Virus record (IMG/VR): IMGVR_UViG_3300025073_000989
DNA: 64,000 bases
Strand: one strand, 5' to 3'
DNA from: a virus
Taxonomy: Duplodnaviria; Caudoviricetes
A program made the translations under genes and the position numbers. Numbering within the stretch: position 1 is the first letter of the stretch; every line of letters starts with the position of its first letter. Below, piece by piece: positions 39,361 through 63,573 of the stretch. The notes below the pieces were generated by a model. It saw only the letters and a program-made list of their open reading frames with translations. It had not been told where the DNA came from and did no database searches.

Positions 39361-40740
39361 ATGAGCAAAAACATTATTTTAAACACGGACAGTTATAAAG
39401 CCTCTCACTGGTTACAGGATCCAGACGGAACAGAAAATAAGTTTTCTTATATCGAAAGTAGGGGCGGTAGATATAAAAAAACTCTCTTTTTTGGCCTTCA
39501 GTACTTCATAAAAGAGTATTTGGTTAAACCGGTCACCAGGCAGATGATTGATGAAGCAGAAGTATTTTGGAAAATTCATGGTGAGCCTTTTAATAGAGAA
39601 GGTTGGCAGTATATACTCGAAAAACATAAGGGGTTTTTGCCAATCAAGATTAAGGCAGTAAAAGAAGGCTCTCTAGTACCAACTAGTAATATTTTGGTGT
39701 CAGTAGAAGCAACTGATAAAAAATGCGCATGGTTGGTTTCTTATGTAGAAACGTCACTGCTTCGAGCAATATGGTATCCTACTACAGTAGCCACAAATTC
39801 CTATGAGTGTAAACAAGTAATCAAAGGGTATCTTGATGAGACGGCTGATGACACTGCTGGGCAAATTATGTTTAAGCTCCACGATTTTGGATCCCGCGGT
39901 GTCAGTTCTTTTGAAAGTGCTGGTATAGGAGGTATGGCTCATCTAGTAAACTTTATGGGCTCCGATACTGTTACTGGTGTTTTATTTGCCAACAAATACT
40001 ATAATGTTCAAATGGCAGGTTTCAGTATCCCAGCAGCAGAACATAGCACTATAACTGTCTATGGTAAAGAGGGAGAAGTAGAGGCATACAGAAAAATGCT
40101 TAAGCTTTTTGCTAAACCAGGAACTTTAGTAGCTGTTGTTTCTGATAGCTATAATATCTACAACGCAGCCGAAAAGCTCTGGGGTGAGCAACTAAAACAA
40201 GAGGTAATCGCTTCTGGGGCTACTGTCATTATTCGGCCCGACAGTGGTAACCCTATTAATGTAGTAAGAGACGTAGTAAAAATACTTTCTGAAAAGTTTG
40301 GATATACTATTAACAATAAAGGGTATAAAATACTTAAAAATGTGAGGGTGATTCAAGGTGACGGTATAAACAAAAAGACTATTTGGGGTATTCTCGAAAC
40401 ATTAAAAGTACATGGCTTTTCTGCTGAAAATGTAGCTTTTGGTATGGGTGGCGCGTTGTTACAGCAAATAGATAGAGACACCCAAAAATTTGCCATGAAA
40501 TGTAGTGCTATTTTAGTAAACGGTGCTTGGATCGATGTGTTTAAACAACCGATAACTGACCCTGGCAAAAACAGCAAGAAAGGTAGACTAATGCTTTACC
40601 ACGAGGATGATGGAGGTTTTACTACCGATTTAGAGAGCAATGCACATGGTAGAAAGGAAGCACTTGTTACCGTTTTTGAAAATGGTATTCTTACGAAAGA
40701 ATATACCTTTGAAGAAGTAAGACGAGTAGCAAGTAAGTAA
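39361..40740 (+). CDS. nadV: Nicotinamide phosphoribosyltransferase
   Basis: TDSYKASH, LHDFGSRG, SIPAAEHST, VVSDSY, IIRPDSG, IQGDG, AFGMGGALLQ, KSKKG-type tail. Confidence 0.95.
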   Translation: MSKNIILNTDSYKASHWLQDPDGTENKFSYIESRGGRYKKTLFFGLQYFIKEYLVKPVTRQMIDEAEVFWKIHGEPFNREGWQYILEKHKGFLPIKIKAVKEGSLVPTSNILVSVEATDKKCAWLVSYVETSLLRAIWYPTTVATNSYECKQVIKGYLDETADDTAGQIMFKLHDFGSRGVSSFESAGIGGMAHLVNFMGSDTVTGVLFANKYYNVQMAGFSIPAAEHSTITVYGKEGEVEAYRKMLKLFAKPGTLVAVVSDSYNIYNAAEKLWGEQLKQEVIASGATVIIRPDSGNPINVVRDVVKILSEKFGYTINNKGYKILKNVRVIQGDGINKKTIWGILETLKVHGFSAENVAFGMGGALLQQIDRDTQKFAMKCSAILVNGAWIDVFKQPITDPGKNSKKGRLMLYHEDDGGFTTDLESNAHGRKEALVTVFENGILTKEYTFEEVRRVASK

Positions 40741-41040: not shown

Positions 41041-41751
41041 ATGAAGATAATAAGTAAGTTTAAAGATTATTATGATTCTATAGCTTTTTCCCAAACACCA
41101 GTATGGGAAAGAAAAACAACAGAAATACTGTTGGATGAAACAAAAAAACTTACTATTAACAAAGAACAAACTATATGGCTTCAAAAAACTCTGCAAGAAC
41201 TACCAAAACCTAGAATAAGTAGTACTAATAATTTATATAAACCTAATTTTTTTATGTATAAAATAGTAGGGTTTTGTGGTGTATTAATTCCCATTTTCCT
41301 TATCTTCAAAGAAAACTGTATTAGACCCACAGCTTATATAGATATTGATGAATTTAAAAAAATGCACAGCCATTTAGACAATAGAGTATCTTGTTTGTTT
41401 GGTAAAAAATTTGAAAAAGAAACAGTAGACGCCTGGAAAATCGAATTTAATGCTACAGCAAAATTAAACGATATCTTCCTAAAACTACAAACACCCATCT
41501 TTATACTTGAACATACTAATATTCGGCACATTATACTTACAACTAACCCAAAACTAGCTAATATTAATTTTCAAAGAATTATTAATCCTTATCAAACATA
41601 TCAACAAATAGAAATGTATCTTTTAAATGAACTTGCCACGGGCTATCAAAAAACACCAGAGTTCTCAGATGAAATAAAAAGAGATATGCATGGTTTTAAT
41701 GAATGGTCATTTAAAAAAAGAGGAATAATCAGTACAGGAGGAATAAAGTGA
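41041..41751 (+). CDS. Hypothetical phage protein
   Basis: 236 aa ORF starting MKIISKFKDYYD. Confidence 0.6.
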   Translation: MKIISKFKDYYDSIAFSQTPVWERKTTEILLDETKKLTINKEQTIWLQKTLQELPKPRISSTNNLYKPNFFMYKIVGFCGVLIPIFLIFKENCIRPTAYIDIDEFKKMHSHLDNRVSCLFGKKFEKETVDAWKIEFNATAKLNDIFLKLQTPIFILEHTNIRHIILTTNPKLANINFQRIINPYQTYQQIEMYLLNELATGYQKTPEFSDEIKRDMHGFNEWSFKKRGIISTGGIK

Positions 41752-42287
41752 AAGAAAAAGTAGATGACTGTTTAACGTGGGCATCCTGTAAAGAACATGA
41801 CCTGGTTTACCTAAAATCTAAACTTCTTCCAGTCAATATAAGACTATTAACAAAATCTTCAGACTACTCAGCTTTAATACGTAGTGCTTGTGAACTAATT
41901 ATAAAAAGACTAAAAACAGATTACTGTGATTACAAAAAACCACACGGAATGTCAGGAGCTAACTGTGCAGTGCCTTTTAATATAATTGCCTTTTTCTTAA
42001 ACAGGTCGAAAGACAATAAAAAAATTATATTAATGATAAATCCGAAAATATTACAATATCTAAAAGAAACTGAAATAACTGACTCTAACTGCGGTTCTAT
42101 AAGACTTAAAAATACTATAAAAGTACGACGCTATAAAGAAGTTAAAGTTTGTTGGTATGATTTAAATGGTAAAAAATATATCCAAATATTTAACAGAAGT
42201 AATGGAAGCTTCACAATACAACACGAGGTAGATCATAATAATGGCGTACTTATTACTGATAGAAACTTAGAACTAACATCTCGCTAA
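41748..42287 (+). CDS. def: Peptide deformylase, divergent
   Basis: MINPKI, SNCGSI (for EGCLS), IQHEVDHNNGVLITDR (HExDH). Confidence 0.75.
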   Translation: MKEKVDDCLTWASCKEHDLVYLKSKLLPVNIRLLTKSSDYSALIRSACELIIKRLKTDYCDYKKPHGMSGANCAVPFNIIAFFLNRSKDNKKIILMINPKILQYLKETEITDSNCGSIRLKNTIKVRRYKEVKVCWYDLNGKKYIQIFNRSNGSFTIQHEVDHNNGVLITDRNLELTSR

Positions 42288-48560: not shown

Positions 48561-49307
48561 CTATATTAAACTAAGTATTTTCGGGTTGTATTTTGTTACT
48601 ACTATTGTATGCTCAAAGTGAGCAGCATAGCTTCCGTCTTTAGTTTTTACAGTCCACCCATCTAGCATGGTCTTTATCTCATGGGTACCTAATGTAAGCA
48701 TTGGTTCTATAGCTAGTACCATTCCCTCTTTTAGTAATAAGCCCTTCGCTGCTTGCCCAACATTTGGTATTTGCGGTTTTTCATGTAAAGATCGCCCTAT
48801 ACCGTGTCCAACAAAATGTCTAACTACACCAAATTTATTATTTTCAGCGTGTGTTTGTATAGCATACGAAATATCGCCAACCCTGTTACCAGGTACAGCT
48901 TGCTCTATTCCTCTATATAGGCACTCCTCAGTAATTCTTTTTAGCTTCTCTACTTGAGTACTGAGCCTTCCTACACCAAAAGTTATTGCAGCATCCCCAT
49001 GATAGCCGTTTTTTAATACACCAAAATCAATACTTAATAACGTACCACTTTCTAGCGGAATGTCAGAGGGAAATCCATGAACCACTTCATCATTTCTACT
49101 AGAACAAATAGAATACGGAAACCCCCTATACCCCTTAAATGAGGGAGTAGCATCATTATCATAAACAAACTCTTCAGCTAATTTATTTAATTTTAAAGTA
49201 CTAGTGCCAGGTTTAGCTTCTAATTTAATTAATTGTAATGCAGTAGCTACAAGCCTAGCACTAATACTTATCTTTTCTATTTCTTCTGCGGTTTTTATTA
49301 TAACCAT
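48561..49307 (-). CDS. map: Methionine aminopeptidase type I
   Basis: IKTAEEI, VVHGFP, SIDFG, GYHGDAA, FVGHGIGRSLHE, LAIEPM, AHFEHTI. Confidence 0.95.
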   Translation of the reverse strand: MVIIKTAEEIEKISISARLVATALQLIKLEAKPGTSTLKLNKLAEEFVYDNDATPSFKGYRGFPYSICSSRNDEVVHGFPSDIPLESGTLLSIDFGVLKNGYHGDAAITFGVGRLSTQVEKLKRITEECLYRGIEQAVPGNRVGDISYAIQTHAENNKFGVVRHFVGHGIGRSLHEKPQIPNVGQAAKGLLLKEGMVLAIEPMLTLGTHEIKTMLDGWTVKTKDGSYAAHFEHTIVVTKYNPKILSLI

Positions 49308-51428: not shown

Positions 51429-51578
51429 TTTAAATTTTCTCCTTTTTAAGTTTTGTTGTTTTTTGTGAAAATCAAAATCAAGCCTTCCAATTATAATTAG
51501 GTTAGTTAATTGCAATAAAAAAAGGGCGCCGACCGTGCGCCCTTTAATTAAACAATCAATAAAATGTAATTATTTTTT

Positions 51579-52541
51579 TTACTCTTCAAATAAATTACCG
51601 ACTGAAGTTTCTTCATGTACATTTTTTATAGCACTTGCTAGTAATGGAGCTATAGAAATAATCTCTATTTTACCACTAGCGACAGCATATTTATTTAGCG
51701 GTATAGTATCAGTAACATATACTTTAGAAAATTTTGAGTTGTTTATCTTGGTCACAGAAGTGCCGGTTAAGACTGGGTGAGTTGCATAGGCTACTATATC
51801 AGTAGCTCCAGCTTCCCAAACTACTTCAGAGGCACCACATAGAGTTCCAGCACTGTCTATCATATCATCTAACATTATAACTGTTTTTCCACTAACATCA
51901 CCAATTAATGTCATATCTTCTATTTGGCCTGGACCTTTTCTTTTCTTATATACTATAGCCATACCACAATTCAGTCGCTTAGCATACGCTTTTGCTCTAT
52001 TAGTACCGCCGGCATCTGGAGAAACAACGACAATATCATCAGCGGAATAATTTTCTTTTATTTGTTTAATAAAAATACCAGAAGCGTATAAATTATCTAC
52101 AGGTATATCAAAAAAACCTTGTGTTTGCCCTGAGTGCAGATCTATAGTAATAATTCTATCTATCCCGGAGACTGATATCAAATTAGCTACTGCCTTAGCA
52201 CTAATTGGTACCTGCGATTTTACTTTTCTATCTTGTCGTGCGTACCCATAATACGGTATTACTGCTGTTACTCTCCAGCAATTAGATCTTTTTAGCGCAT
52301 CCAAAATAAGACACAATTCCAGTACATTGTGGTTGGCCATCTTACAGGTTGGTTGTATGACAAACACATCCATACCGCGCATTGTGTCATATATCTCTAT
52401 TTGGCTTTCTCCATCCGAAAACGTGCCTATAAAAACTTTTGATAACCCGCCACAGTTAGGTAGTTGCAAACAAACAGTTTCTGCAAGTTTAGGATTAGCT
52501 GATCCTGATATAATTCTCATATCTCTATTATTAGTATGCAT
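51579..52541 (-). CDS. prs: Ribose-phosphate pyrophosphokinase
   Basis: FSDGE, IPYYGYARQDRK, DLHSGQTQGFF, VSPDAGG, LDDMIDSAGTL, THPVL. Confidence 0.95.
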   Translation of the reverse strand: MHTNNRDMRIISGSANPKLAETVCLQLPNCGGLSKVFIGTFSDGESQIEIYDTMRGMDVFVIQPTCKMANHNVLELCLILDALKRSNCWRVTAVIPYYGYARQDRKVKSQVPISAKAVANLISVSGIDRIITIDLHSGQTQGFFDIPVDNLYASGIFIKQIKENYSADDIVVVSPDAGGTNRAKAYAKRLNCGMAIVYKKRKGPGQIEDMTLIGDVSGKTVIMLDDMIDSAGTLCGASEVVWEAGATDIVAYATHPVLTGTSVTKINNSKFSKVYVTDTIPLNKYAVASGKIEIISIAPLLASAIKNVHEETSVGNLFEE

Positions 52542-52567: not shown

Positions 52568-53005
52568 TCAAATAGTTTGCTTTACTTTATCTTCTCTTTT
52601 TAGCTCACATCCATTTTCTGATATTCTAAATGTTTCAAAATACACTTTGCCTTCCTTTACTAATTGTTTAGCTCGTTGCTGGCTTTTACTCAAGCGAGAA
52701 TGGCCGGTTTTAATTTCTACTAATATTATAGCATCGTCGTTTATTTGTATTCCGTCCACTGGATTTCCTAAAAACCTAAAATTACCTGGATCATACGGCC
52801 AAGCTGTAAGAAACGGCGCCAAGCTTTCACCAATTTTACCAAGCCTTACCTCCGAGCTTTTTCTAAAACTAAGCTCGTCGTTATATTTCTTCTGGCGCTG
52901 ATCTAACAATTCACGCCACTCTTTTGCATTAACATAATACAACAAAACACCCACAACTATACCTAATGTACCAACCACTAAACCCACTATTAACTCAATC
53001 CCCAT
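52568..53005 (-). CDS. Holliday junction resolvase-like nuclease (Endonuc_Holl type) with N-terminal membrane anchor
   Basis: GKIGESLAPF, FRFLGNPVDGI, LVEIKTG..LS..Q. Confidence 0.75.
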   Translation of the reverse strand: MGIELIVGLVVGTLGIVVGVLLYYVNAKEWRELLDQRQKKYNDELSFRKSSEVRLGKIGESLAPFLTAWPYDPGNFRFLGNPVDGIQINDDAIILVEIKTGHSRLSKSQQRAKQLVKEGKVYFETFRISENGCELKREDKVKQTI

Positions 53006-53249
53006 TACTTTCTTCGCTCCCTATTAAATTTTTGATGTCTTTTGGTGTAAATTCACTGTCTTTGCTTTTCCCGTAAATCTTATGAGTTAAAAAAGTACCA
53101 TCTGGTTTTTCTATAACAACCGCTATATAACAGTCCTCCAGATAATAACATTCACAATAATATTTACATTTACAAGAATGGCTTATTTTGTAGTAATAAG
53201 TTTTACCATTAATTATTATTTTTCTTCTACCCCTTTTAGGCATTGTCAT
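52995..53249 (-). CDS. Hypothetical protein
   Basis: 84 aa; RRKIIINGKTYYY. Confidence 0.55.
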   Translation of the reverse strand: MTMPKRGRRKIIINGKTYYYKISHSCKCKYYCECYYLEDCYIAVVIEKPDGTFLTHKIYGKSKDSEFTPKDIKNLIGSEESNGD

Positions 53250-53266: not shown

Positions 53267-54034
53267 TTAATTGTCTTCTTCTTTTTTACCCTTCAATTTT
53301 GGATACTCTACACGGCGTTGATAAGTCCCCATCAGCTCTCTAGCAAGAGCCTCTTTAATCTTTTTAAGATCTCCCAACTTTATACTAACTTCATCCAATT
53401 CTCCAGTATCAAGTAAATTTGTAATGGTGCTTTCTATTACCTGCTTTGGGTCCAACTTATTAGTTTGAAACAAAGACCTAGACGTAGCTTCTACTTTATC
53501 AGCTATCATCAATACCATGGCCTCTATAGTTTTAGGCCGTGTTCCTTTATGACTAAATCTCTCTAGATCTTCTTCTTTTTCACCTGCTTTCACATAAAAA
53601 TATTGCATCAAACCACGCCCATGGTGCTGACTTATTATTTCAATAAGATCCCTGGGAAAGTTATGATCATTTATTAAAATATTAACTGTGTCGGCGACAT
53701 GGCTTCGAATAATCTGTGAACCTAACCACGGATCGAGCTCGACATATGGGTCCTCTCCGTCCAATTGATTCTCACTGAACATTCTTGGCGCATTTATTTT
53801 TCCGCAGTCATGATATAAGGCAGCTACCTTCATCTTTTGAATATCTAAACCTAATTCAATACTAATACTCTCTACTAAGGACATAAGGCTTTGTGAATGC
53901 TTATATGTCCCAGGAGCCTGCTCACGTAACCTCTGCAATAAAGGGTAACCTGTATCTAACAAATCCACTAAGGGCTTATCCAAACCATTACCATTCTTTT
54001 CTTTTTCTATGTTATCTATCATTAAAGTTCTCAC
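53267..54034 (-). CDS. Stand-alone HD phosphohydrolase of the PgpH/7TM-HD intracellular type
   Basis: LLQRLREQAPGTYKHS, ALYHDCGK, FSENQ, IIRSHV, ISQHHG, LMIADKVEA. Confidence 0.8.
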   Translation of the reverse strand: MRTLMIDNIEKEKNGNGLDKPLVDLLDTGYPLLQRLREQAPGTYKHSQSLMSLVESISIELGLDIQKMKVAALYHDCGKINAPRMFSENQLDGEDPYVELDPWLGSQIIRSHVADTVNILINDHNFPRDLIEIISQHHGRGLMQYFYVKAGEKEEDLERFSHKGTRPKTIEAMVLMIADKVEATSRSLFQTNKLDPKQVIESTITNLLDTGELDEVSIKLGDLKKIKEALARELMGTYQRRVEYPKLKGKKEEDN

Positions 54035-54263
54035 TTAATTCCGTATAATCTAAAGGATTACCACATCGTCTTAAATACCAACTTCCTCCGTCTACTGAAA
54101 CTGCACCGCAAGCACAGGACCTGTAATCGTGTCTATTTGTAGAACGAATTACTTCTCCACATAAATGACATCGTACTGAATTATTATAGATGGGCCCTAT
54201 ATTTAAACGGCTTCGTTCTTCCTTTGGTGTATCTATAGTTACAAAATTACGGTAGTACATCAT
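54012..54263 (-). CDS. Small zinc-binding phage protein
   Basis: RCHLCGEVIRS..HDYRSCACGAVSVDGG. Confidence 0.7.
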   Translation of the reverse strand: MMYYRNFVTIDTPKEERSRLNIGPIYNNSVRCHLCGEVIRSTNRHDYRSCACGAVSVDGGSWYLRRCGNPLDYTELSENFNDR

Positions 54264-55246
54264 ACTGGCCTCACATTATTAAAATACTTTATATCCAAAT
54301 CAAAAGTGTGTTTAATTCTAAGTTTGGCTATTTCAACATTTTTTGAATCCATTTCTATCCCCAAAAATTTTCTATTTAGTCTACGACAAGCTACGCCTAA
54401 AGATCCAGTGCCGCAGTAAATATCTACTACTAGTTGGTTTGGGCCACTTGTTAGCAACCGAACCAACCAAACTAAAATACCTAAGGGCTTGACAGAAACG
54501 TGCGTATTTTCAACCAAACCATTAGCTGTTTTTTCTTGACTGGAAGCTCTAGGACAATACTGAACATTGGTAGGAAGTGCACCCCTGGCAGAAGGAACCC
54601 AGCCCTTTCGACCTAATTTTTTAAATGTATTACTCTTAATATCAGACTGCATATGCATCTCGCCGGTATTTTCGAACCTTTTTATTATAGAGCTATGGTC
54701 TCCTTTATATGTCTGACGGGATTCTTCTAAATTTAGAAGATTTGTTTTATATAAATTCCAGTTGTTTAATTCAGAACCATCAAGCTTCTTCCTATATATT
54801 AAAATTGGGTTGTAGACGTTACGTAATTTACTACCGTAAGCTTCATCCTCCGTCCTGAAACCCTTAATATGAGTACCCTGTCCACACCACACCACCTGAT
54901 CCCTAAACTCAAATTGGGCTTGTGACATTCTTAGGCACAGTAACGGTACCATAGATGGCTGACAAAAAATGGCGATATGTCCACCAGGCTTAAGCTTGTC
55001 GTAGCAAAGATTCCAAATGTCTATGGACGGCATATCATCGTCCCAAGTTTCCATCTTAACTCCGTAAGGGGGATCTATAATAAAACAATGGACCGAACTA
55101 TCTGCTATTGTTGGTAAAATATCCTCACACCTTCCCTCTCTGACTTCAAAATCAGAACCCGCGCCAGTATATATTTCACTCTTCGGGTTATAGTTTTTTT
55201 CTCTAAATTCCTTGGTAAAAATATCATATATCATAGAATTGCTCAT
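54260..55246 (-). CDS. DNA amino-methyltransferase (N6-A/N4-C, beta class)
   Basis: Catalytic IIDPPYG precedes HVSVKP and SAM-binding VVDIYCGTGS. Confidence 0.85.
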   Translation of the reverse strand: MSNSMIYDIFTKEFREKNYNPKSEIYTGAGSDFEVREGRCEDILPTIADSSVHCFIIDPPYGVKMETWDDDMPSIDIWNLCYDKLKPGGHIAIFCQPSMVPLLCLRMSQAQFEFRDQVVWCGQGTHIKGFRTEDEAYGSKLRNVYNPILIYRKKLDGSELNNWNLYKTNLLNLEESRQTYKGDHSSIIKRFENTGEMHMQSDIKSNTFKKLGRKGWVPSARGALPTNVQYCPRASSQEKTANGLVENTHVSVKPLGILVWLVRLLTSGPNQLVVDIYCGTGSLGVACRRLNRKFLGIEMDSKNVEIAKLRIKHTFDLDIKYFNNVRPV

Positions 55247-55301
55247 TTATAATTTTCAATTAATCTATTATTACGTAAATAATTCCTTCGGAGTCGTCGG
55301 C

Positions 55302-56561
55302 TTAAACTAAGGCAGCGCTTTTCAGCGGCCGGCTAAAACGTCGTGTTTTAGGCCTTAGTAGCGATTTTCCTGTTTCAACCCGACCCCTATTTTCGGGAAT
55401 TGCTTCCCTATCGTCAAGTGGTTTTGCCGGTCCACAGGCTTTAGTAATTAAACTTCCCGCGCTCCTCGCGGTATTTAGTATCACCGTATTTTGGACGGTA
55501 TGCTTCAGTATAACCTGAGCTGCGGCTATATCTCTGTCGTGAGTTAGTCCGCAAGGGCATTTCCAGCTACGAATATTTAACGGGAGTTTCTCCGTAACAT
55601 AATTGCAATTAGGACAAACTCCTGTGCTTCGTTCGTATCTTGGATGTTTCAAAAGCTCTCTACCATTCCAGAGGGCTTTATGCGTTAAAAAAATGGTAAA
55701 CATGCCCCAGCCACAGTCTGTAACCGCACTGGCTAGCTTTCCCTGAGCTAAACTCGACACTTTTAGGTCCTCTATCGCTATCACTTGGTTTTCGCTTACG
55801 ATAGTGGTACTCAATTTGTGCAGGAAATCTTTCCGCTGATCACTTATTTTCTGGTGGAGATTTGCTACTTTTATTCTGGCTTTGGCTCTGTTAGAGCTTT
55901 TCTTCTTGGTTTTATTAAAACGTCTTTGGAGGATTTTAAGCTTCCTTTTAGACAGTTTATAAGGTATTGGTGGGGCAATTTTATCTCCGTCCGAAGTGGT
56001 AATAAAACTTTGAATACCAAGGTCAAGTCCGATCTTGTTATGAGACTTGAGCTTCATTGGTTTCGTGCAGTCGACCTGTAGAGAAACATACCAATCCCCA
56101 TTAGGCCTTTTTGAAATAGTGGCACTGTTGGGGAAGACTGGAACTTCATCAGACCATTTTACGTCGATTGGTCCTAACTTGGAAAGTTTTAGAAGTTTAC
56201 CTGATTGGAAGATATGAGTTCCCTGACGTTTATCCATTTGATAACACACGGAATTCTTGAACTTCTTAAACTTAGGATGCTCGGCTTCATGTCGGAAGAA
56301 CTTCTTATAGGCTTCATCCAAATCATACAAGGTGTTAGTCATTACCGTTACAGAAGCTTTTAAAAGCCAAGACTCATGCTTCTTAAGACAAGTTAAATCT
56401 CTGCTTAAGGTTACTACGTTGTGCTTAAATCCGTAGAGTTTGAACATGGAGTCTTTCTGATCCAGAGACCAATTCCAGACGAAGCGGGACGCAGCAAACT
56501 CCTTTTGGAGTTGTTTGCGCTGCTTAAGCGTGGGATAGATTCTGAATTTGAAAGCTCTCAT
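55302..56561 (-). CDS. tnpB: RNA-guided endonuclease TnpB
   Basis: AFKFRIYPT, RuvC IGLDLG / IAIEDL / HDRDIAAA, zinc finger CPNC..CPCG. Confidence 0.92.
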   Translation of the reverse strand: MRAFKFRIYPTLKQRKQLQKEFAASRFVWNWSLDQKDSMFKLYGFKHNVVTLSRDLTCLKKHESWLLKASVTVMTNTLYDLDEAYKKFFRHEAEHPKFKKFKNSVCYQMDKRQGTHIFQSGKLLKLSKLGPIDVKWSDEVPVFPNSATISKRPNGDWYVSLQVDCTKPMKLKSHNKIGLDLGIQSFITTSDGDKIAPPIPYKLSKRKLKILQRRFNKTKKKSSNRAKARIKVANLHQKISDQRKDFLHKLSTTIVSENQVIAIEDLKVSSLAQGKLASAVTDCGWGMFTIFLTHKALWNGRELLKHPRYERSTGVCPNCNYVTEKLPLNIRSWKCPCGLTHDRDIAAAQVILKHTVQNTVILNTARSAGSLITKACGPAKPLDDREAIPENRGRVETGKSLLRPKTRRFSRPLKSAALV

Positions 56562-56615
56562 TAATGCTCCTGATTAAGTTTAAAAATAGATCATACCATA
56601 CAAATTAGTTAAAGT

Positions 56616-56721
56616 CAAGTTAAATATTATAGAACGTAATATTTAACTCGTTCTTAGAAGCAAGTTAAATCTTATAGAACGTAATATTTAACTCGTTCTT
56701 AGAAGCAAGTTAAATCTTATA
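56616..56721. repeat. 45-bp tandem repeat (2 full units plus a partial) with internal inverted repeats
   Basis: caagttaaat(a/c)ttatagaacgtaatatttaactcgttcttagaag; AGTTAAAT/ATTTAACT and AGAACG/CGTTCT arms. Confidence 0.9.
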
Positions 56722-56750
56722 CTATTAAGGAAGCTAGTTAAACCCATGGA

Positions 56751-56880
56751 AAAATCGCCGCCGACGAAAGATACAACGCGCTACGACCTTCTGGCTAAGA
56801 GATACCAACCAGGTCGGCGGGCCGTAGCACATCCCTGTGCTACTTCAATGGCTGTCAAACAAGTAGCATTGAAAGATTTT
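56751..56880. ncRNA. GC-rich 130-nt multi-stem element, candidate structured RNA
   Basis: AAAATC/GATTTT closing stem, CCGCCGAC/GTCGGCGG, GTAGCAC/GTGCTAC, TTCAATG(G)CT/AGCATTGAA. Confidence 0.4.
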
Positions 56881-56908
56881 ACGTAAAAAACTTAACATAT
56901 TCAACCCC

Positions 56909-56956
56909 CTTCAACCAATACATCAACCTGACAAGCAGGTTATGTTTCTGTTGGGC
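56909..56956 (+). repeat. Short attC-like site B1 (plus polarity)
   Basis: CTTCAAC..ACAT-c-AACCTG-acaag-CAGGTT-ATGT..GTTGGGC; 48 bp, short for an attC. Confidence 0.6.
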
Positions 56957-57012
56957 CACATCTAGGTAGCCAGTTAATTTTAAATTCCTTCAATGATAAA
57001 GGAAGCTACATT

Positions 57013-57255
57013 ATGAACTTTGAAGACTTCAAAAATATAGTTCATTCAGAACCATACGAACGAGATAGTATTATTTACACTGTCTACGTAACATATGTTG
57101 ATAATCAATATTGTGGTTGGTGGTTTTGTGAAACATGTAATGTTAACTCAGATACAACCCCAAGTAAGCCATCAGATACAATTGAAAAAGCTATAATAGA
57201 TGCCAAAACTCATACAGGTGGACATCATTGGTCTAAACATCATCAAAGCACATGA
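57013..57255 (+). CDS. Cassette-borne hypothetical protein (sense to attC)
   Basis: AAGGAAG RBS; CxxC plus C-terminal His cluster. Confidence 0.6.
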   Translation: MNFEDFKNIVHSEPYERDSIIYTVYVTYVDNQYCGWWFCETCNVNSDTTPSKPSDTIEKAIIDAKTHTGGHHWSKHHQST

Positions 57256-57530
57256 GCAGGAATTAAACCACCGTATATTTCTAACTGCTCTGCTTTACAT
57301 AGATTATACAAAACTGGCTCAGGTACGATTTCCATACCAGGATACGGGTTTGTTTTAAAATTAACATTGACATCACTAGATAGTGAAATTGATAAATAAC
57401 CGTAAGTACCATCAGTGAATTTAATATCAACCCCTGTATGTGACCATTCTAATGTCTCTATTGTTTTACCTATGAAATCGTATAAAGGCATATTTGGATT
57501 TAATTCTTCTTTAGATTTTAGTTCTTTCAT
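57243..57530 (-). CDS. Cassette-borne hypothetical protein (antisense to attC)
   Basis: Minus strand GTTGGGC-AAAAGGAGGATTTATAT-ATG. Confidence 0.65.
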   Translation of the reverse strand: MKELKSKEELNPNMPLYDFIGKTIETLEWSHTGVDIKFTDGTYGYLSISLSSDVNVNFKTNPYPGMEIVPEPVLYNLCKAEQLEIYGGLIPAHVL

Positions 57531-57547
57531 ATATAAATCCTCCTTTT

Positions 57548-57640
57548 GCCCAACAAGTTAATCCAGCGGACGGCTGGAAGCTTGCTGAGGCGCTGCGCGG
57601 CGAGCTTATTGGCAGCCGCCGCTGATTAATAACGTTAGCA
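57548..57640 (+). repeat. Integron attC site B2
   Basis: GCCCAAC (complement of GTTGGGC in B1)...GTTAGCA; TTAATC-c-AGCGG-a-CGGCTG / CAGCCG-CCGCT-GATTAA. Confidence 0.9.
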
Positions 57641-57678
57641 AAACAATTACAAAACTTAAACCAACAAAGGAAACTCCT

Positions 57679-57933
57679 ATGAAAATCAAGTTTACATGGA
57701 TTAAAACTATTGATAACCCACAAGCCAGAACTTTTATAGAAAATAAAATTACTGAAATAATAAATTTAAAGAAATTTCCTGAGCATATCTATGAACAAAA
57801 TATTATCACCATACAATTAGAATCAAATAGAAAAGCTGAATATTCTGTGGACGGTATTATATTTGACCAAAATAATAAACAACTACACCGTTTTTCATTT
57901 GACTGTAGTAATGGTATCAACTCGCTAACATAG
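57679..57933 (+). CDS. Cassette-borne hypothetical protein (sense)
   Basis: AAGGA RBS; stop overlaps a core-like CGCTAAC at 57923-57929. Confidence 0.6.
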   Translation: MKIKFTWIKTIDNPQARTFIENKITEIINLKKFPEHIYEQNIITIQLESNRKAEYSVDGIIFDQNNKQLHRFSFDCSNGINSLT

Positions 57934-57936
57934 CAA

Positions 57937-58209
57937 TTAAATTTCGCGCGAAGAAGTGTTGTCCTCATTTATTGGGGTCTCTGGTTTCTGCTCAACTAAT
58001 CGGCTAATATCTGACATATTGTACCATATATGGTCGCCATTATATTTAACCATTATCCAGTCTTTAAAAAAGTGTATAAGGTAGGGTGTATAGTTATGAA
58101 CTTCCCCGTTCGTTTTAATTATGTGTAAATTTGCTTCAGGGTGTAATGAAGCTATATCATGACACATTTTATTTTCTGTTCGAACATCTTTAACTATTAA
58201 ACGTTCCAT
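57937..58209 (-). CDS. Cassette-borne hypothetical protein (antisense)
   Basis: AAAAGGAGATTTAT-ATG; RBS lies in a 12-bp inverted repeat 58209-58254. Confidence 0.6.
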   Translation of the reverse strand: MERLIVKDVRTENKMCHDIASLHPEANLHIIKTNGEVHNYTPYLIHFFKDWIMVKYNGDHIWYNMSDISRLVEQKPETPINEDNTSSREI

Positions 58210-58276
58210 ATAAATCTCCTTTTGTAGCCGCCAAACTTCGTTAGGAGATTTATAAAAAACCTAAAGAAAAACGGCG

Positions 58277-58366
58277 TGCTAACAACTGGTTCAACCTGAA
58301 CGGAACCAGCACTTGTTGTTTAAAAAATTACCCTTATTGGCCGTCAGGTTAACCAGGGTGTTATCT
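58277..58366 (+). repeat. Integron attC site B3
   Basis: TGCTAAC (complement of GTTAGCA in B2)...GTTATCT; TGGTT-c-AACCTGA-a-CGG / CCG-TCAGGTT-AACCA. Confidence 0.9.
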
Positions 58367-58391
58367 TCAAACTAAATAAAAATACTAAAAA

Positions 58392-58769
58392 ATGACTACA
58401 ACAATACTTGAATTAATTAATAACCACTGGACCACACTGATATCATTATTGATAACTATATGGTCTCTTTTAAGAAACTACAATTGGAAAAGAACATTAA
58501 GTATATACTTAAGTTTAATTGTAGATAACTCACATTCAGTTACAAAGTTAATAGCTGAGCATTGTGAAGACACTTGTATTAAACATAGTTCAGAAAACCT
58601 TAATCATCAAATAACTCATTTATTAAGTACCTTTCCAGCGCTGGCTAAAAAATGGATTTATATTAATAAACCAGAAGCTGAATGGCAGTCGTGGGAACAA
58701 AAACTTCAAATATCTATGGACACATACCGCTTGCGAAATCGCTTGCTAACTTTATTAAAACTGAAATAA
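58392..58769 (+). CDS. Cassette-borne membrane protein (sense)
   Basis: N-terminal hydrophobic helix; starts 25 nt after GTTATCT. Confidence 0.55.
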   Translation: MTTTILELINNHWTTLISLLITIWSLLRNYNWKRTLSIYLSLIVDNSHSVTKLIAEHCEDTCIKHSSENLNHQITHLLSTFPALAKKWIYINKPEAEWQSWEQKLQISMDTYRLRNRLLTLLKLK

Positions 58770-58887
58770 CAGCAACAGGTATTACAACATACTCAAAAAG
58801 TCCCATAAGTAACGGAGCAAAATCTATAATATCAAGTAAAGTAAAAATCATTACAGCAAATAAAACTAACATTACTATATTAAACAT
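58714..58887 (-). CDS. Cassette-borne two-helix membrane protein (antisense)
   Basis: Minus strand GTTATCT-GGAGGTGTAT-ATG (MFNIVMLV...). Confidence 0.6.
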   Translation of the reverse strand: MFNIVMLVLFAVMIFTLLDIIDFAPLLMGLFEYVVIPVAVISVLIKLASDFASGMCP

Positions 58888-58899
58888 ATATACACCTCC

Positions 58900-58987
58900 A
58901 GATAACAATTACATCCACCAGACGGCGAGAAGCTCGGAGTTTTTTATTCAAGCTTTTTAGCGCCGCTGGTGATGTAAGGCGTTATAC
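58900..58987 (+). repeat. Integron attC site B4
   Basis: AGATAAC (complement of GTTATCT in B3)...GTTATAC; TTACATC-c-ACCAG-a-CGGCG / CGCCG-CTGGT-GATGTAA. Confidence 0.9.
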
Positions 58988-58994
58988 TTTCAAA

Positions 58995-59747
58995 TTAAAA
59001 CACAATCCCCCATTTTCCTAACACATTAAGCCTACCAATGGGGTTTGTCAACTCGATAAGTTTCCTAAGTTTTAAACTAACAGCATTACCTAAAGTACCA
59101 TCCAACATTGCAGCAGCAAATGTATTATTTTCTGAAAGTAATTCGTTAATTTTGTCTGTATGTTTGTTCAAATCACCAAAGTATTTATGGCAGTCTACGT
59201 AGAGCCGTTCATTTATATCCCAATAATGGCCGTCAACAATAGCAAAACCATTTATAATATCTTTTTTATAGCTAACACAAACTACTAACACATCTAGCAC
59301 TGTGTTTTTAATATCCTTATTGGTCTCGGGATAAGTAAATTTTTTGGAAAGAGCGTTCTTAACAGTAACCGTGTCAGGATAAACAGAGGCGTTAGAAACA
59401 AAACGCTTATTTCTTCTATTAACGGCTTTCATTTCAATAATTACATTAGCACCTAAACATACAATATCAAAAGTTCCCTGAGAATGGATAGTTCTAAACT
59501 CCCACCCATCTTTAAATTCAGGAAACATATTATTTAAATGTTTTGCTAGTAATTTAGCATTAATATCTTCTTTATAAATAGTATCCCATGGTCTACTTAT
59601 TGCCGATAAATAGTCCGATATAGCCCTAGCCACAACCCGCTTAAAATAATTATTTGATTCAGTAATTCTAATATTTTCGTTGTAATTAATATACTCTTTT
59701 TTATTTTTAATTGCATTTATTGCATACTGATAGCTTTCTGTCCCCAT
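58995..59747 (-). CDS. Putative PD-(D/E)xK restriction-type endonuclease
   Basis: TFDIVCLGANVIIEMKAV fits a D-x(n)-ExK active site. Confidence 0.45.
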   Translation of the reverse strand: MGTESYQYAINAIKNKKEYINYNENIRITESNNYFKRVVARAISDYLSAISRPWDTIYKEDINAKLLAKHLNNMFPEFKDGWEFRTIHSQGTFDIVCLGANVIIEMKAVNRRNKRFVSNASVYPDTVTVKNALSKKFTYPETNKDIKNTVLDVLVVCVSYKKDIINGFAIVDGHYWDINERLYVDCHKYFGDLNKHTDKINELLSENNTFAAAMLDGTLGNAVSLKLRKLIELTNPIGRLNVLGKWGIVF

Positions 59748-59985: not shown

Positions 59986-60457
59986 AAAAACTAGGATCTA
60001 CAGATAAAATATAACTAGTTACTACAGTAAGCGCTATTTTATTTTCTTCTACTAGAAACCTATATTTAGGATCATCGGCCCATATCTTTAGTCTTTGTTC
60101 TATTATCTTTTTTCCAAAATTTTGTATTGTTATCAGTTCTTTAAATTGTCTTGGAAATTTAGTTCTAATATAACGCATATACCCACTGCGCATTAATTCC
60201 CAAATAAAAGTATCTTTCCTTTCGTACAATAAGTCTTGAGTAGTAATATATACAACTCTCCAACCTTTTCCAAAACGCTTTATTATTGCTTCATTTATTG
60301 TACTGTATTCTGTTCTGTCTATACCACAAAGAATCACACCAAAATCTTCTATTATAAATTGAACAGATACTTCTTTTACTAAATAAATTTTTTTAAACTC
60401 AAGCCTTAGCGCATCGAGCATAATTTGCAAATCAATTTCAAGTTCATTTAGTAACAT
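59951..60457 (-). CDS. Hypothetical protein
   Basis: 168 aa, overlaps both neighbours. Confidence 0.55.
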   Translation of the reverse strand: MLLNELEIDLQIMLDALRLEFKKIYLVKEVSVQFIIEDFGVILCGIDRTEYSTINEAIIKRFGKGWRVVYITTQDLLYERKDTFIWELMRSGYMRYIRTKFPRQFKELITIQNFGKKIIEQRLKIWADDPKYRFLVEENKIALTVVTSYILSVDPSFYDTMPEFVGGE

Positions 60458-62541
60458 TATTCATCCTCTTTATCATCATGGCACTTACCACTACCATCAC
60501 AGCCGTCGCCACATGCACCACCACTACAACCAGACGTTGGTTCTATATCTGGATCAAATAAGGGCTTAGCTTTAGTTACTGAAGCCGTAGCTTTCTCTCC
60601 ACCGTCAGTTAAATAAAAAGGCGGATCATCGTTTTTATTTTCAAAACTAAACATAACATCGTTAGCTTTTGTACTAACATGTACTGTAGCAAGCCTATTC
60701 ACATCTTCAGATAACAATCTCCTAGCCAAAGGGGTGGCAATTTTCTGCTCAATACTTCTTTTAAGGGGCCTAGCACCAAAATCATCATCTATTCCATCTT
60801 TAAATATAAAATTTTTAATTTTCTTATCAAATTTTAACTCTACATGCTTATATTCAGTATCGTTTGTTCGTAAATTATCATTGAGCTTATAAAGTTCTAT
60901 ATCTATAATTCTCATATAGTCATCCCTCTTTAGGGTATTAAAGTGAATTATAGAATCCAATCTATTTAAAAACTCCGGTTTAAATTTCTTTTTTAACGCT
61001 GAGTCTAAAGCTGCTTCTTTTTTTTCCTCAGTTAGCACAGCAACATCACCAAAACCTATAGTCTTTTTGACGGCAGCAATCTCGGAAACGCCAACATTTG
61101 AAGTCATAATAATAATTGAATCTTTAAATGAAACGGTTTTACCTTTACCATCAGTAAGCCTACCCTCCTCCATGATTTGTAACAAAAGCTCGTGCACCTT
61201 TCTACTAGCTTTTTCTACCTCATCAAACACCACTACACTGAATGGATTTTTATACATGTGATTAGTAAGAAAACCACCGGCCTCAAAACCAACGTACCCA
61301 TTTGGCGCCCCTATTAATTTTGAATACTCATGGTCGGCAGAATATTCCGAGCAATCAATGTTTACTAAATTATTTCTATCCCTAATCAGTTCATCAGCTA
61401 GTACTTTGCTTGCTAAAGTTTTACCGCAGCCGGTTTTTCCTGCAAATAGGAAGGAACCAATTGGTTTATTGGGATCCTTTAGCCCGACACTTGCTCGTTG
61501 AATTGCCTCAGCAAGAGAGTCTACGGCTTTATCCTGACCAATTAAAAATACCTTCATATTATCTGCAAGATTGATGAGGTCTTCTTTAGGTAAATCTTTA
61601 AATCTCTTTTTTGGTTTAGTCTTCATGTACTGCTTCATGTTATTAGAAGCTGACTTTTTCTTTCTTGCTGTGGATTCAGAGGCATCGTCCTCATCGCCAT
61701 CTTCGCCCTCTTTATCTGAAAGTTTTTGTGCGTTTTCAAAAGTTAAAAACTCATTTACAGACTTACATAATTCGTATAACTCATGCATTAGTAATGGCGG
61801 AGCTACTCTATTAGGAATACCTAGATTATCTAACAAAGAAAAAAGCTCCTCGAAATCCTCTACACAGGTAGATACAACAAAGGTTCCGAAACTAGTTCTA
61901 TTATGAAAATAGCGTTTTTTAAGTATAACTTCTGCATCTTCTGCATTAAACTGCCTTATTGAAACATATTGGCCTATACGCTTCCACCATTTCTGTACTA
62001 CCTGGTACTCTAAGGATTTTATATCCTTATCTACTGGATTATCTGAAGCATTTTGTCCCTTTTTACCCCTATTGTCTTTGGTTGGTACTGCAGGTTTAGC
62101 TGTTAGGTCGTCTTCAACAGCCTCATCTTCAAAATAACTTAAATCCCAATGTTTGTTGTCTACAAGTTTTCTAGTTTCTTTGTCATTACTTTCAGTATCT
62201 TTAATTATTTTAACAACATAATTGTTATTTAATACTAGTTTTAAAGGATCTAATATTGGGTTAAACTTTAATATAGCGCTAACTACCTCATCTCTTATTT
62301 TAAGTACAATGGAAGCACCAATACCCTGCTGATTTAAATGAAACAAAAGTTGGTTGATATTAGCTATACAGGTAGCTATAATAAAATCCTCATAGAAATT
62401 TTTACTTATTTTACCTTTTTCTCTGGCTAAATAAGCCAGTTTATCCTCTATCTCATTTACTGGTATCTCCAAAATAAGTATTTCAAACTCGGCTTCTTTT
62501 ATAAAAACCTTATGTACCTTGTAATCACTATTATTTGACAT
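60457..62541 (-). CDS. ClpB/ClpC-like AAA+ ATPase with only the second (D2) module and a novel N-terminus
   Basis: LIGQDKAV, PIGSFLFAGKTGCGKT, IDCSEY, LIGAPNGYVG, FDEVEKA, IIIMTSNVG, FKPEFLNRLD, FGARPLKR. Confidence 0.85.
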   Translation of the reverse strand: MSNNSDYKVHKVFIKEAEFEILILEIPVNEIEDKLAYLAREKGKISKNFYEDFIIATCIANINQLLFHLNQQGIGASIVLKIRDEVVSAILKFNPILDPLKLVLNNNYVVKIIKDTESNDKETRKLVDNKHWDLSYFEDEAVEDDLTAKPAVPTKDNRGKKGQNASDNPVDKDIKSLEYQVVQKWWKRIGQYVSIRQFNAEDAEVILKKRYFHNRTSFGTFVVSTCVEDFEELFSLLDNLGIPNRVAPPLLMHELYELCKSVNEFLTFENAQKLSDKEGEDGDEDDASESTARKKKSASNNMKQYMKTKPKKRFKDLPKEDLINLADNMKVFLIGQDKAVDSLAEAIQRASVGLKDPNKPIGSFLFAGKTGCGKTLASKVLADELIRDRNNLVNIDCSEYSADHEYSKLIGAPNGYVGFEAGGFLTNHMYKNPFSVVVFDEVEKASRKVHELLLQIMEEGRLTDGKGKTVSFKDSIIIMTSNVGVSEIAAVKKTIGFGDVAVLTEEKKEAALDSALKKKFKPEFLNRLDSIIHFNTLKRDDYMRIIDIELYKLNDNLRTNDTEYKHVELKFDKKIKNFIFKDGIDDDFGARPLKRSIEQKIATPLARRLLSEDVNRLATVHVSTKANDVMFSFENKNDDPPFYLTDGGEKATASVTKAKPLFDPDIEPTSGCSGGACGDGCDGSGKCHDDKEDE

Positions 62542-62556
62542 ATAGTAGTAACTCCT

Positions 62557-63573
62557 TTATTTATTTTTTCTGAACAACTCATTACCATATTTAACTACTA
62601 TAACTGCTTCCTTATAAGTTAAGCCTTCGGGACTTATTGGAACAGTAACCGGATCTAAACCCTTGTCCACAAAAGCATCATGGGCCAGTTTTTTATAATC
62701 CATTCCCCTTACACTTAGTAAACCACGTAAGGCTGTAATTTGAACATCACTAATCATATCAACATTTTTCTTTGGCGGTAAATCACTACTATTTACTGAT
62801 GGTACTTTATTTACTTCTGCTAAAGGCATCGGAATCTTAGGAAAAGATGCCTCTATATTCTCAACTGCCTTTTCTAACTCCAGTGCTTTGTTTTTTTTAG
62901 TAACGCTGGTCTTATCTTTAACTACGGTATTATCGCTTTTGACAGCCGGAAAAGGAGGTAAGGAGTAATCAAACGCGCCTGATGCTTCTCCTATTATCTC
63001 AGAAGACCAACAAAGTCCCCCATCGAAATTATTCAATGGGGTATCGTTTTTAGGTTTATTTTCTCTAGTCTCTTTGTTAGAAATACTTACTTCCTTAGCA
63101 ATGTCTGTTTCTGGTATAGTAAAATCAGAAGCAGCTGTTTTGTTCCTATTTAGAGCCATGTTTTCGGAAGACTCTATAATCTCATCAGGCGATTCTTCTA
63201 AGTTTAAACCTACCCCCCATCTAGAACAAGCGTTTCTAATAGCTAAAGCCTCAGCTGCTTTAAATACAGCACCTAAATCAACTATTTTACCTTTATTGTC
63301 TCCGTAAGTAAATCTTTTTATGGAACTACTTCCATAGCCAACATGGCTAAACTCATTACCTACAGATACCCGTACTCTAATTAAAACAGTGTCCTCAATT
63401 AGTTCTTGGTGTTCGACCTCAGTAGACCATCTTCCAGAAAAAACTTTATTCATTCTGTCTATAACATCTATGCTTTTAATGTACTTATACCCCTGAGAAC
63501 CAGGCTTTGTTTTTATGTCAAAAGGCTCATACAGCTTTTTCAAAACTAAATCATCCATTTTAATTCTCCCCAA
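62557..63573 (-). CDS. Rad52/Rad22-family single-strand annealing recombinase
   Basis: YKYIKSIDVIDRMNKVF..WS, FKAAEALAIRNAC..WGVG; low-complexity C-terminus. Confidence 0.75.
   Translation of the reverse strand: MGRIKMDDLVLKKLYEPFDIKTKPGSQGYKYIKSIDVIDRMNKVFSGRWSTEVEHQELIEDTVLIRVRVSVGNEFSHVGYGSSSIKRFTYGDNKGKIVDLGAVFKAAEALAIRNACSRWGVGLNLEESPDEIIESSENMALNRNKTAASDFTIPETDIAKEVSISNKETRENKPKNDTPLNNFDGGLCWSSEIIGEASGAFDYSLPPFPAVKSDNTVVKDKTSVTKKNKALELEKAVENIEASFPKIPMPLAEVNKVPSVNSSDLPPKKNVDMISDVQITALRGLLSVRGMDYKKLAHDAFVDKGLDPVTVPISPEGLTYKEAVIVVKYGNELFRKNK

Follow-up and report, generated by a model that had tools for sequence, protein, structure and literature searches.

What would a phage do with the catalytic HD domain of PgpH, a bacterial cyclic di-AMP (c-di-AMP) phosphodiesterase, on its own? 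The question is raised by a single gene in a 64,000-nucleotide stretch of DNA from a virus of the Caudoviricetes (Duplodnaviria), IMG/VR record IMGVR_UViG_3300025073_000989; this whole stretch is called the window below. An initial annotation, made from the sequence alone, read the gene product as the cytoplasmic HD domain of PgpH with all metal ligands but no membrane or sensor domains, and proposed that an unregulated soluble enzyme of this kind could degrade immune or stress second messengers. The gene in question is the following:

53267..54034, minus strand: stand-alone PgpH-type HD phosphodiesterase gene, identified by its open reading frame and by profile, PDB and model matches

The open reading frame (ORF) is intact and encodes 255 amino acids (aa) when read from the GTG at 54034. 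The identical protein has a public gene call, P0001, which is seen on 14 contigs, the longest of 275,832 bases, and is 251 aa long. This length fits an ATG at 54022, whose letters overlap with the upstream gene's stop in ATGATAGATAA; that ATG rather than the GTG is the likelier start.

All six motifs named at the outset are found in the protein: APGTYKHS (residues 40-47), YHDCGK (74-79), FSENQ (86-90), SHV (111-113), QHHG (136-139) and ADKVEA (178-183). The protein matches the Pfam HD family (PF01966, E=1.2e-15) and the NCBIfam HDIG profile TIGR00277 (E=9.7e-15); Pfam HD_5 reaches 22.9 bits, under its cut-off of 27.2. When every PDB chain is searched with phmmer, the sole real match is the HD domain of Listeria PgpH/Lmo1466 (4S1B/4S1C, E=6.5e-39), in which residues 29-245 of the query align with residues 4-221 of the 222 in the 4S1B chain; the runner-up has E=0.047. 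The similarity of the phage protein to the PgpH HD domain is far above chance. The predicted structure agrees: an AlphaFold model, for which 23 aligned sequences served as input, has a mean predicted local distance difference test score (pLDDT) of 81.5, with disorder confined to residues 1-19 and 241-255, and Foldseek places it on 4S1C/4S1B with TM scores of 0.89-0.92 and a root-mean-square deviation of 1.6-2.6 Å. The runner-up fold family, dNTP triphosphohydrolase, is nine orders of magnitude weaker than PgpH (E=4e-3), and HD-GYP structures (3TM8, 4R8Z, 4MCW, 9RBZ) reach TM scores of 0.4-0.5 with E values of 0.03-0.17.

The catalytic centre is complete. With the ligand and lysine residues of PgpH taken from the literature (PMC8177086, PMC12072042), the seven metal ligands H514, H543, D544, H580, H604, H605 and D648 map onto H46, H75, D76, H112, H137, H138 and D179 of the phage protein, and the oxyanion/catalytic lysine K547 maps onto K79. 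The seven ligands and K79 are invariant across the 23 members of the family alignment, so the annotated retention of all metal ligands extends to the family.

The regulatory parts of PgpH are missing. The HD domain takes up residues 29-245 of 255, there is no 7TMR-HDED domain and there are no seven transmembrane helices; the maximum 19-residue Kyte-Doolittle score is 0.86, and no hydrophobic segment is present, which bears out the first impression that membrane and sensor domains are lacking. A split PgpH with a separate seven-transmembrane (7TM) gene was considered and rejected because, besides the missing hydrophobic segment, none of the window ORFs of at least 100 aa encodes a polytopic membrane protein, and hence no 7TM partner gene lies there. 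Since the sensor and membrane parts are absent, the phage protein is a catalytic-domain-only relative of PgpH and not a canonical PgpH.

The family to which it belongs is large, phage-only and without prior description. A word-indexed search of 5.8 billion proteins yields at least 424 clusters at 90% identity (140-447 aa), among whose JGI automatic names is 'cyclic-di-AMP phosphodiesterase PgpH'; the best 120 of the 424 are 241-267 aa long at 53-63% identity, and contigs of 175-311 kb carry several of them. When 1.84 billion representatives are searched exhaustively with HMMER, without a length filter, 6162 hits come up, the best nine of which are short proteins (179-268 aa, 39-51% identity); next in rank come PgpH proteins of about 700 aa with a C-terminal HD domain (35-42% identity), interspersed with more short forms. 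In IMG/VR, the gene is found on 23 distinct viral loci. A pattern-seeded scan of 185,579 prokaryotes (one genome per species) returns 20 loci. In 18 of them, from Bacillota, Spirochaetota, Actinomycetota, Armatimonadota and 'Deltaproteobacteria', PgpH is full-length (500-800 aa); the two stand-alone proteins (240 and 232 aa, 56-58% identical) sit on short contigs with the phage's own neighbours. Cellular relatives overall are 500-850 aa long and carry the HD domain at the C-terminus.

Phylogeny separates the two forms. A maximum-likelihood tree was built from 100 HD domains (IQ-TREE, LG+C20, quick search). In it, a branch of length 0.69 with an SH-aLRT support of 100 sets off all 39 sampled stand-alone proteins (205-268 aa), among them some from unrelated phage contexts; its opposite side holds 57 full-length PgpH and four proteins of 300-314 aa that are probably truncated gene calls. 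Because the stand-alone proteins group apart on this fully supported branch, they appear to form one old, diversified lineage, so far found only in phages, rather than a collection of recent acquisitions from hosts. That the gene was recently captured from a host was considered separately and rejected: the sampled cellular PgpH are 33-42% identical whatever their phylum, and the phage clade lies outside them.

Catalogues of known phages do not contain this family. The HD protein matches no PHROGs family, a BFVD search gives no viral structure below E=0.036, and INPHARED holds no genuine phage with a close relative, all eight hits being UNVERIFIED records. The two of these that were examined encode a full-length bacterial pgpH (490-732 aa) followed by an ORF of 157-159 aa, the size of ybeY: a 732-aa pgpH in OR846595.1 (50417-57112, UNVERIFIED Enterococcus phage, locus L055) and a 490-aa pgpH in MT835511.1 (2439-9128, Bacteriophage sp., locus L056). 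The INPHARED hits were rejected as bacterial phoH-pgpH-ybeY chromosomal DNA in phage-labelled UNVERIFIED records, and plasmid hits were rejected as cellular full-length genes. A literature search for a phage-encoded c-di-AMP phosphodiesterase found no paper.

In many bacteria c-di-AMP is essential; as a second messenger, it governs potassium and osmolyte uptake and cell-wall homeostasis. From the homology we infer substrate, activity and benefit to the phage: there is roughly an even chance that the protein works as a c-di-AMP hydrolase without regulation and drains the host's pool of this messenger. Made by the phage during infection, it would be a soluble, constitutively active PgpH catalytic HD domain working as a two-metal phosphodiesterase. 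By homology, 3'3'-c-di-AMP would be bound over the di-metal centre of H46, H75/D76, H112, H137/H138 and D179; a metal-bridged water would attack one phosphodiester, K79 would stabilize the leaving oxyanion, and the product would be linear 5'-pApA. With neither a 7TMR-HDED sensor nor seven membrane helices, the enzyme would escape host control and therefore should collapse the housekeeping pool. K+ and osmolyte uptake would then be de-repressed and cell-wall and turgor homeostasis altered; a c-di-AMP-dependent brake on phage production or a c-di-AMP-gated immune effector, where present, would be lost. This reading is favoured by the fact that the only relative of solved structure is the PgpH HD domain, every other HD family standing at E values of 4e-3 or above, and by the isolated Listeria HD domain having been crystallized with c-di-AMP bound (title of 4S1B). 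PgpH itself is known for the Mn2+-dependent conversion of c-di-AMP to pApA and does not cleave c-di-GMP (PMC8177086, PMC5575661).

Several points weigh against c-di-AMP hydrolysis. The activity of the clade is read from homology, and the long branch (0.69) between the phage clade and cellular PgpH could accommodate a switch of substrate. In P. gingivalis, a full-length PgpH homologue with the HD motif intact is reported to lack c-di-AMP hydrolase activity (PMC13700151). Depletion of c-di-AMP would set off guards of the PanDA/Panoptoo type (PMC13640721), and c-di-AMP production by the host is presumed. Evidence on both sides comes from a conservation comparison of 53 stand-alone with 141 full-length HD domains (194 sequences), in which family-wide conservation served as a proxy for the c-di-AMP contact residues of 4S1B. 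In favour of hydrolysis, 35 residues reach 85% conservation or more in the stand-alone and the full-length group alike (e.g. FxENQ, P83, P102, P167, E182, A183, R241 and Y244), and where a site conserved in full-length PgpH differs between the groups, the substitution is conservative (L>F, L>M, A>L, R>K, Y>F, A>C). Clade-specific residues of the stand-alone proteins are L175, L207 and G221. On the other side, position 207 is Leu in 98% of stand-alone sequences, corresponds to R676 in Listeria and is Lys in 47% of full-length sequences; Arg at the R676 position has been called phosphate-stabilizing by a modelling paper, from docking only (PMC13700151).

The window copy departs further from its own family, a feature that the initial annotation overlooked. 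It carries H97Y in the NPHD motif and S105G, at sites where His and Ser are each conserved in 98-99% of the other sequences. In the RY motif it has R161S (Arg in 98% of stand-alone and 77% of full-length sequences) and Y162H (Tyr in 96-100%), at positions that correspond to Listeria R630 and Y631 by our mapping; D210T (Asp in 92% and 59%) and Q212E (Gln in 98% and 87%) follow. It thus reads FSHK for [FYW]RY, which is unique among the 53 stand-alone sequences: the RY motif is kept in 52 of them and the NPHD histidine in 51. Among the 25 most conserved columns, the window copy keeps 22 and departs at three (H97Y, S105G, Y162H); three or more such columns are missed by just 7 of the 194 sequences, which places it in the top ~4%. 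With the family-conserved residues lost at H97Y, S105G and R161S/Y162H, its specificity or activity may differ from that of the family. None of the eight catalytic residues has changed, although the window copy differs by ~43% from its nearest relatives; this looks not like decay but like selection still acting on catalysis while the pocket was remodelled.

The genomic setting bears on which function is plausible. The HD gene lies in a tight string of genes on one strand, whose other features are:

54260..55246, minus strand: N6/N4 DNA methyltransferase, first gene of the string, overlapping the DUF7695 gene by 4 nucleotides (nt)
54012..54263, minus strand: DUF7695 small Cys-rich (Zn-ribbon-like) protein of 83 aa, its stop overlapping the HD start
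52995..53249, minus strand: Cys-rich ORF of 84 aa between the HD and PF10107 genes, of no confident family
52568..53005, minus strand: PF10107 (Holliday-junction-resolvase-like endonuclease) domain protein whose N-terminus forms a membrane helix, the clade-wide downstream neighbour of the HD gene
51579..52541, minus strand: ribose-phosphate pyrophosphokinase (PRPP synthetase, Prs), last gene of the string
51521..51545, minus strand: terminator-like hairpin of 9 pairs, 6 of them G-C, with a T tail, directly after Prs

From the methyltransferase through Prs, neighbouring genes overlap or almost touch, and a strong terminator-like hairpin comes after them, which suggests that they form one transcription unit; the hairpin is the probable end of this unit containing the HD gene. 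As the DUF7695 stop overlaps the HD start, the two genes are probably translationally coupled. A sigma-70 promoter scan shows no excess over shuffles.

The position of the HD gene is conserved. In relatives of more than 50% identity, the gene order runs from a Rad52-like gene through a ClpB-like ATPase, a 168-aa gene and often a Zn-ribbon ORF of 57-72 aa to the HD gene, and continues downstream with the membrane-helix/PF10107 protein, a tail fibre and methionine aminopeptidase. This fixed position, counted wherever at least one of the upstream block and the downstream PF10107 gene is present, is found in 13 of 14 clade loci and likewise in two phage contigs binned into metagenome-assembled genomes (MAGs). 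Holding one place in a conserved block is more in keeping with a function that every infection requires, with a target present in every host, than with membership of a variable counter-defence island. In the window, an attC cassette array, TnpB, the DNA methyltransferase and DUF7695 have come to separate the HD gene from the 168-aa gene, and the HD-PF10107 pair is intact. Distant stand-alone relatives (41-47% identical) sit in other phage contexts.

Further details of the neighbourhood are recorded here for their own sake. The ClpB-like/168-aa block lies within ~250-2000 bases of the HD gene in relatives (L001, L006, L008, L015), whose loci were compared with 54260-59747 of the window; here ~5.7 kb has been inserted between block and HD gene, made up of a 250-aa gene, the attC array, TnpB, the DNA methyltransferase and DUF7695. 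The PF10107 protein (130-155 aa) follows the HD gene in 13 of 16 readable clade loci, often adjacent or overlapping (e.g. L002 10698-11096, L006 10764-11174, L031 5825-6148), and is a membrane-anchored nuclease-fold protein. The DUF7695 slot holds a different small Zn-ribbon ORF in relatives, with examples at L001 9776-9985, L006 9762-9965, L017 5716-5928, L019 5711-5914 and L029 3883-4095 and 5015-5302. Zn-ribbon-like ORFs make up 8 of 39 genes adjoining the HD gene versus 31 of 360 elsewhere in the loci (Fisher p=0.025, from crude gene calling and loci that are not independent), and a functional coupling of HD to these small neighbours was set aside, the enrichment being weak. In three distant lineages, an NAD-dependent DNA ligase with a LigA-type N-terminus follows the HD gene with one small gene between (L022 7100-8137, L023 7086-8918, L025 2241-4118).

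The window as a whole has a G+C content of 31-46%; a search of it for tRNAs found none, and a search among catalogued phages found no near relative of its uncultured giant phage. Its genes include tail-fibre and virion proteins, an Rpb1-like RNA polymerase piece, phiEco32-type ligases, two RNA ligases, a ClpB-like ATPase, a Rad52-like protein and TnpB. A complete NAD+ salvage set is present, composed of an NMNAT-Nudix fusion (38249-39301, plus strand), NAMPT (39361-40740, plus strand) and the PRPP synthetase (51579-52541, minus strand) that shares the gene string of the HD gene; this set may counter NAD+-depleting defence effectors. The set of protein-maturation genes is unusually full for a phage. 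Peptide deformylase lies at 41748-42287 (plus strand) and methionine aminopeptidase at 48561-49307 (minus strand); the ClpB-like AAA+ ATPase occupies 60457-62541 (minus strand) and the Rad52-like protein 62557-63573 (minus strand).

Three other explanations have to be set beside c-di-AMP hydrolysis. That the same fold and chemistry act on a different substrate, in the clade or at least in the window copy, is unlikely, although the long branch dividing the clade from cellular PgpH and the clade-specific L175, L207 and G221 would agree with it, as would a window copy without H97, S105, R161 and Y162 that keeps all catalytic residues. Candidate substrates are pApA or other linear dinucleotides, (p)ppGpp or (p)ppApp, and 2',3'-cyclic phosphate RNA ends; the last would tie the protein to the RNA-repair genes of the genome, and the two RNA ligases of the window count in its favour, as does ppGpp, which reportedly binds PgpH as an inhibitor. 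Such a shift has to contend with the retention of most PgpH-specific non-ligand residues (FxENQ to Y244 as listed above), with the far worse matches of HD-GYP, dNTPase, YqeK and RNase Y HD domains, and with the RY motif and the NPHD histidine in nearly all stand-alone sequences; the 52 of 53 and 51 sequences that keep them indicate that any shift is particular to the window copy and not to the family. The same pocket changes could instead point to a weakly active or inactive binder, which would hold c-di-AMP at the metal site with slow or no turnover and act as a sponge or regulator. Several ultra-conserved pocket residues are gone from the window copy, c-di-AMP-binding phage sponges such as Acb4 exist (PMC13640721), and the P. 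gingivalis PgpH homologue is reported inactive with its HD motif intact (PMC13700151). This explanation is nevertheless quite improbable: the catalytic residues are invariant family-wide, the probability that all eight survive by chance if free to change is ~0.57^8, about 0.01 by our estimate, and the claim of inactivity for the P. gingivalis protein leans largely on docking and simulation.

A dedicated anti-defence nuclease would degrade immune cyclic nucleotides made during infection and so block their effectors, as Acb1 and Apyc1 do. Its substrates would be the di-/trinucleotides of the cyclic oligonucleotide-based antiphage signalling system (CBASS), type III CRISPR cyclic oligoadenylates, the cCMP/cUMP of Pycsar (an antiphage resistance system with a pyrimidine cyclase), or defence-specific c-di-AMP or cUA. 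In favour of this, the protein is restricted to phages and has no regulatory domains, HD-superfamily phosphodiesterases of jumbo phages have been predicted to act against nucleotide-based immunity (PMC7824862), and c-di-AMP itself has immune roles (bioRxiv 10.1101/2025.06.19.660554; PMC13640721; bioRxiv 10.64898/2026.08.10.743927). The full NAD+ salvage set of the same genome (NMNAT-Nudix, NAMPT, Prs), a known counter to NAD+-depleting effectors, points in the same direction, and the altered pocket residues of the window copy could mean a shifted substrate. All the same, this role is rather unlikely. PgpH is reported to be c-di-AMP-specific and inactive on c-di-GMP (PMC8177086), the gene keeps its position in a core-like block and not in a variable island, PHROGs, a phage catalogue independent of PADLOC, gives no match, and PgpH-type domains have no known experimental tie to CBASS, Pycsar or type III signals. 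The reported specificity of PgpH and the fixed place of the gene speak against the proposed eraser of the signals used in CBASS, in Pycsar and in type III CRISPR. What survives of the initial annotation is an unregulated soluble messenger phosphodiesterase, the most natural reading of the protein; the breadth across those three signal classes has no specific support.

A c-di-AMP hydrolase presupposes a host that makes c-di-AMP, and the leads are as follows. One sister phage contig (JASFHE010000010.1, locus L031) lies in a Desulfobacteraceae MAG and carries the ClpB-like gene, the 168-aa gene, HD and PF10107; a second (CAZNER010000097.1, locus L032), 7 kb long and binned with a Saccharibacteria MAG, carries HD and PF10107. 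As both have the gene block of the phage clade, they are almost certainly phage contigs binned with bacteria. The Desulfobacteraceae MAG has a diadenylate cyclase, as do 29 of 31 genomes of that family, the one bacterial family testable as host, and 11 of 14 control genomes. Among the 30 family genomes other than that MAG, 29 have their own PgpH at 33-40% identity, in open frames of 321-966 aa, mostly ~800. In 61 genomes of the family, the phage TnpB finds no match and the phage sigma-54/HmcD-like DNA only matches of 36 nt; since neither gave anything useful, the Desulfobacteraceae lead is not confirmed.

C-di-AMP was tied to phage biology only in 2025-2026, through Listeria prophages, the Haloferax TIR-SAVED effector and minimal diadenylate cyclases acting as decoy-signal guards. 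In Listeria, accumulation of c-di-AMP lowers prophage gene expression and phage yield (bioRxiv 10.64898/2026.05.13.725036). The Haloferax TIR-SAVED effector senses housekeeping c-di-AMP, which is raised on virus infection (bioRxiv 10.1101/2025.06.19.660554). In PanDA/Panoptoo systems, constitutive c-di-AMP or cUA restrains a toxic effector, and phage sponges such as Acb4 are the trigger (PMC13640721; bioRxiv 10.64898/2026.08.10.743927). It is possible, at somewhat less than an even chance, that the old, diversified, sensor-less PgpH clade represents the first viral c-di-AMP erasers, near-core in a jumbo-phage lineage and spread to other phage lineages, which would switch off the host's essential osmotic and cell-wall messenger together with c-di-AMP-gated immunity. 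If so, guards that watch for c-di-AMP loss would gain an enzymatic trigger besides sponges, and TIR-SAVED effectors sensing housekeeping c-di-AMP would be silenced too. A phage-only clade of PgpH catalytic domains would show enzymatic manipulation of c-di-AMP by phages, and a regulator-free c-di-AMP hydrolase would serve as a tool. The finding is not categorically new, as fold and chemistry are known and HD phosphodiesterases in jumbo phages were predicted in 2021.

The nearest known systems are the cellular PgpH proteins, namely Lmo1466 (4S1B/4S1C) and YqfF/PgpH of Bacillus subtilis. The phage protein shares their fold (TM 0.9), is 33-35% identical to them along the entire domain, and has the seven metal ligands, the catalytic lysine, and the FxENQ, QHHG and DxxEA motifs in common with them. 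Unlike them, it is phage-encoded and has neither the 7TMR-HDED extracellular domain nor the seven membrane helices; it lies across a fully supported branch from all sampled cellular PgpH, and the window copy additionally lacks the NPHD histidine and the RY motif. The HD-GYP and HD-alarmone phosphodiesterases of jumbo phages are likewise of the HD superfamily and proposed to remove host nucleotide messengers. Both are among the six phosphodiesterase families that Iyer et al. (2021) predicted in cultured jumbo phages as counters to nucleotide-based defences, a precedent missed in the initial annotation; the PgpH type is not mentioned there (PMC7824862). The HD-GYP enzymes of cultured jumbo phages belong to a different HD family (TM 0.4-0.5; HD_5 below cut-off), and since no genuine INPHARED phage or BFVD protein is closely related, the HD enzymes of cultured phages are not of the PgpH type.

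Acb1, Apyc1 and the sponges are phage proteins that remove cyclic nucleotide signals, a role likewise proposed for the HD protein. Their folds (2H phosphoesterase in Acb1, metallo-beta-lactamase in Apyc1, small proteins in the sponges) are unrelated to the all-helical HD fold, which has no Pfam or PHROGs similarity to Acb1 or Apyc1, and the early suggestion that the protein would be distinct from these two enzymes holds good. Acb1, Apyc1 and the sponges are typically accessory genes, whereas the HD gene keeps a conserved position in its clade; experiments have demonstrated their immune role, whereas for the HD protein it is a possibility. Comparable in its changes is PDEPg (PGN_0521), the Porphyromonas gingivalis 'pseudo-phosphodiesterase' (PMC13700151), a PgpH-type HD protein that, like the phage protein, keeps the ligands and carries pocket substitutions; the position of Listeria R676 is Ile in PDEPg and Leu in the phage clade. 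PDEPg is a full-length bacterial membrane protein reported inactive from assays plus modelling, whereas the phage protein stands alone and its clade keeps most of the other PgpH-specific residues.

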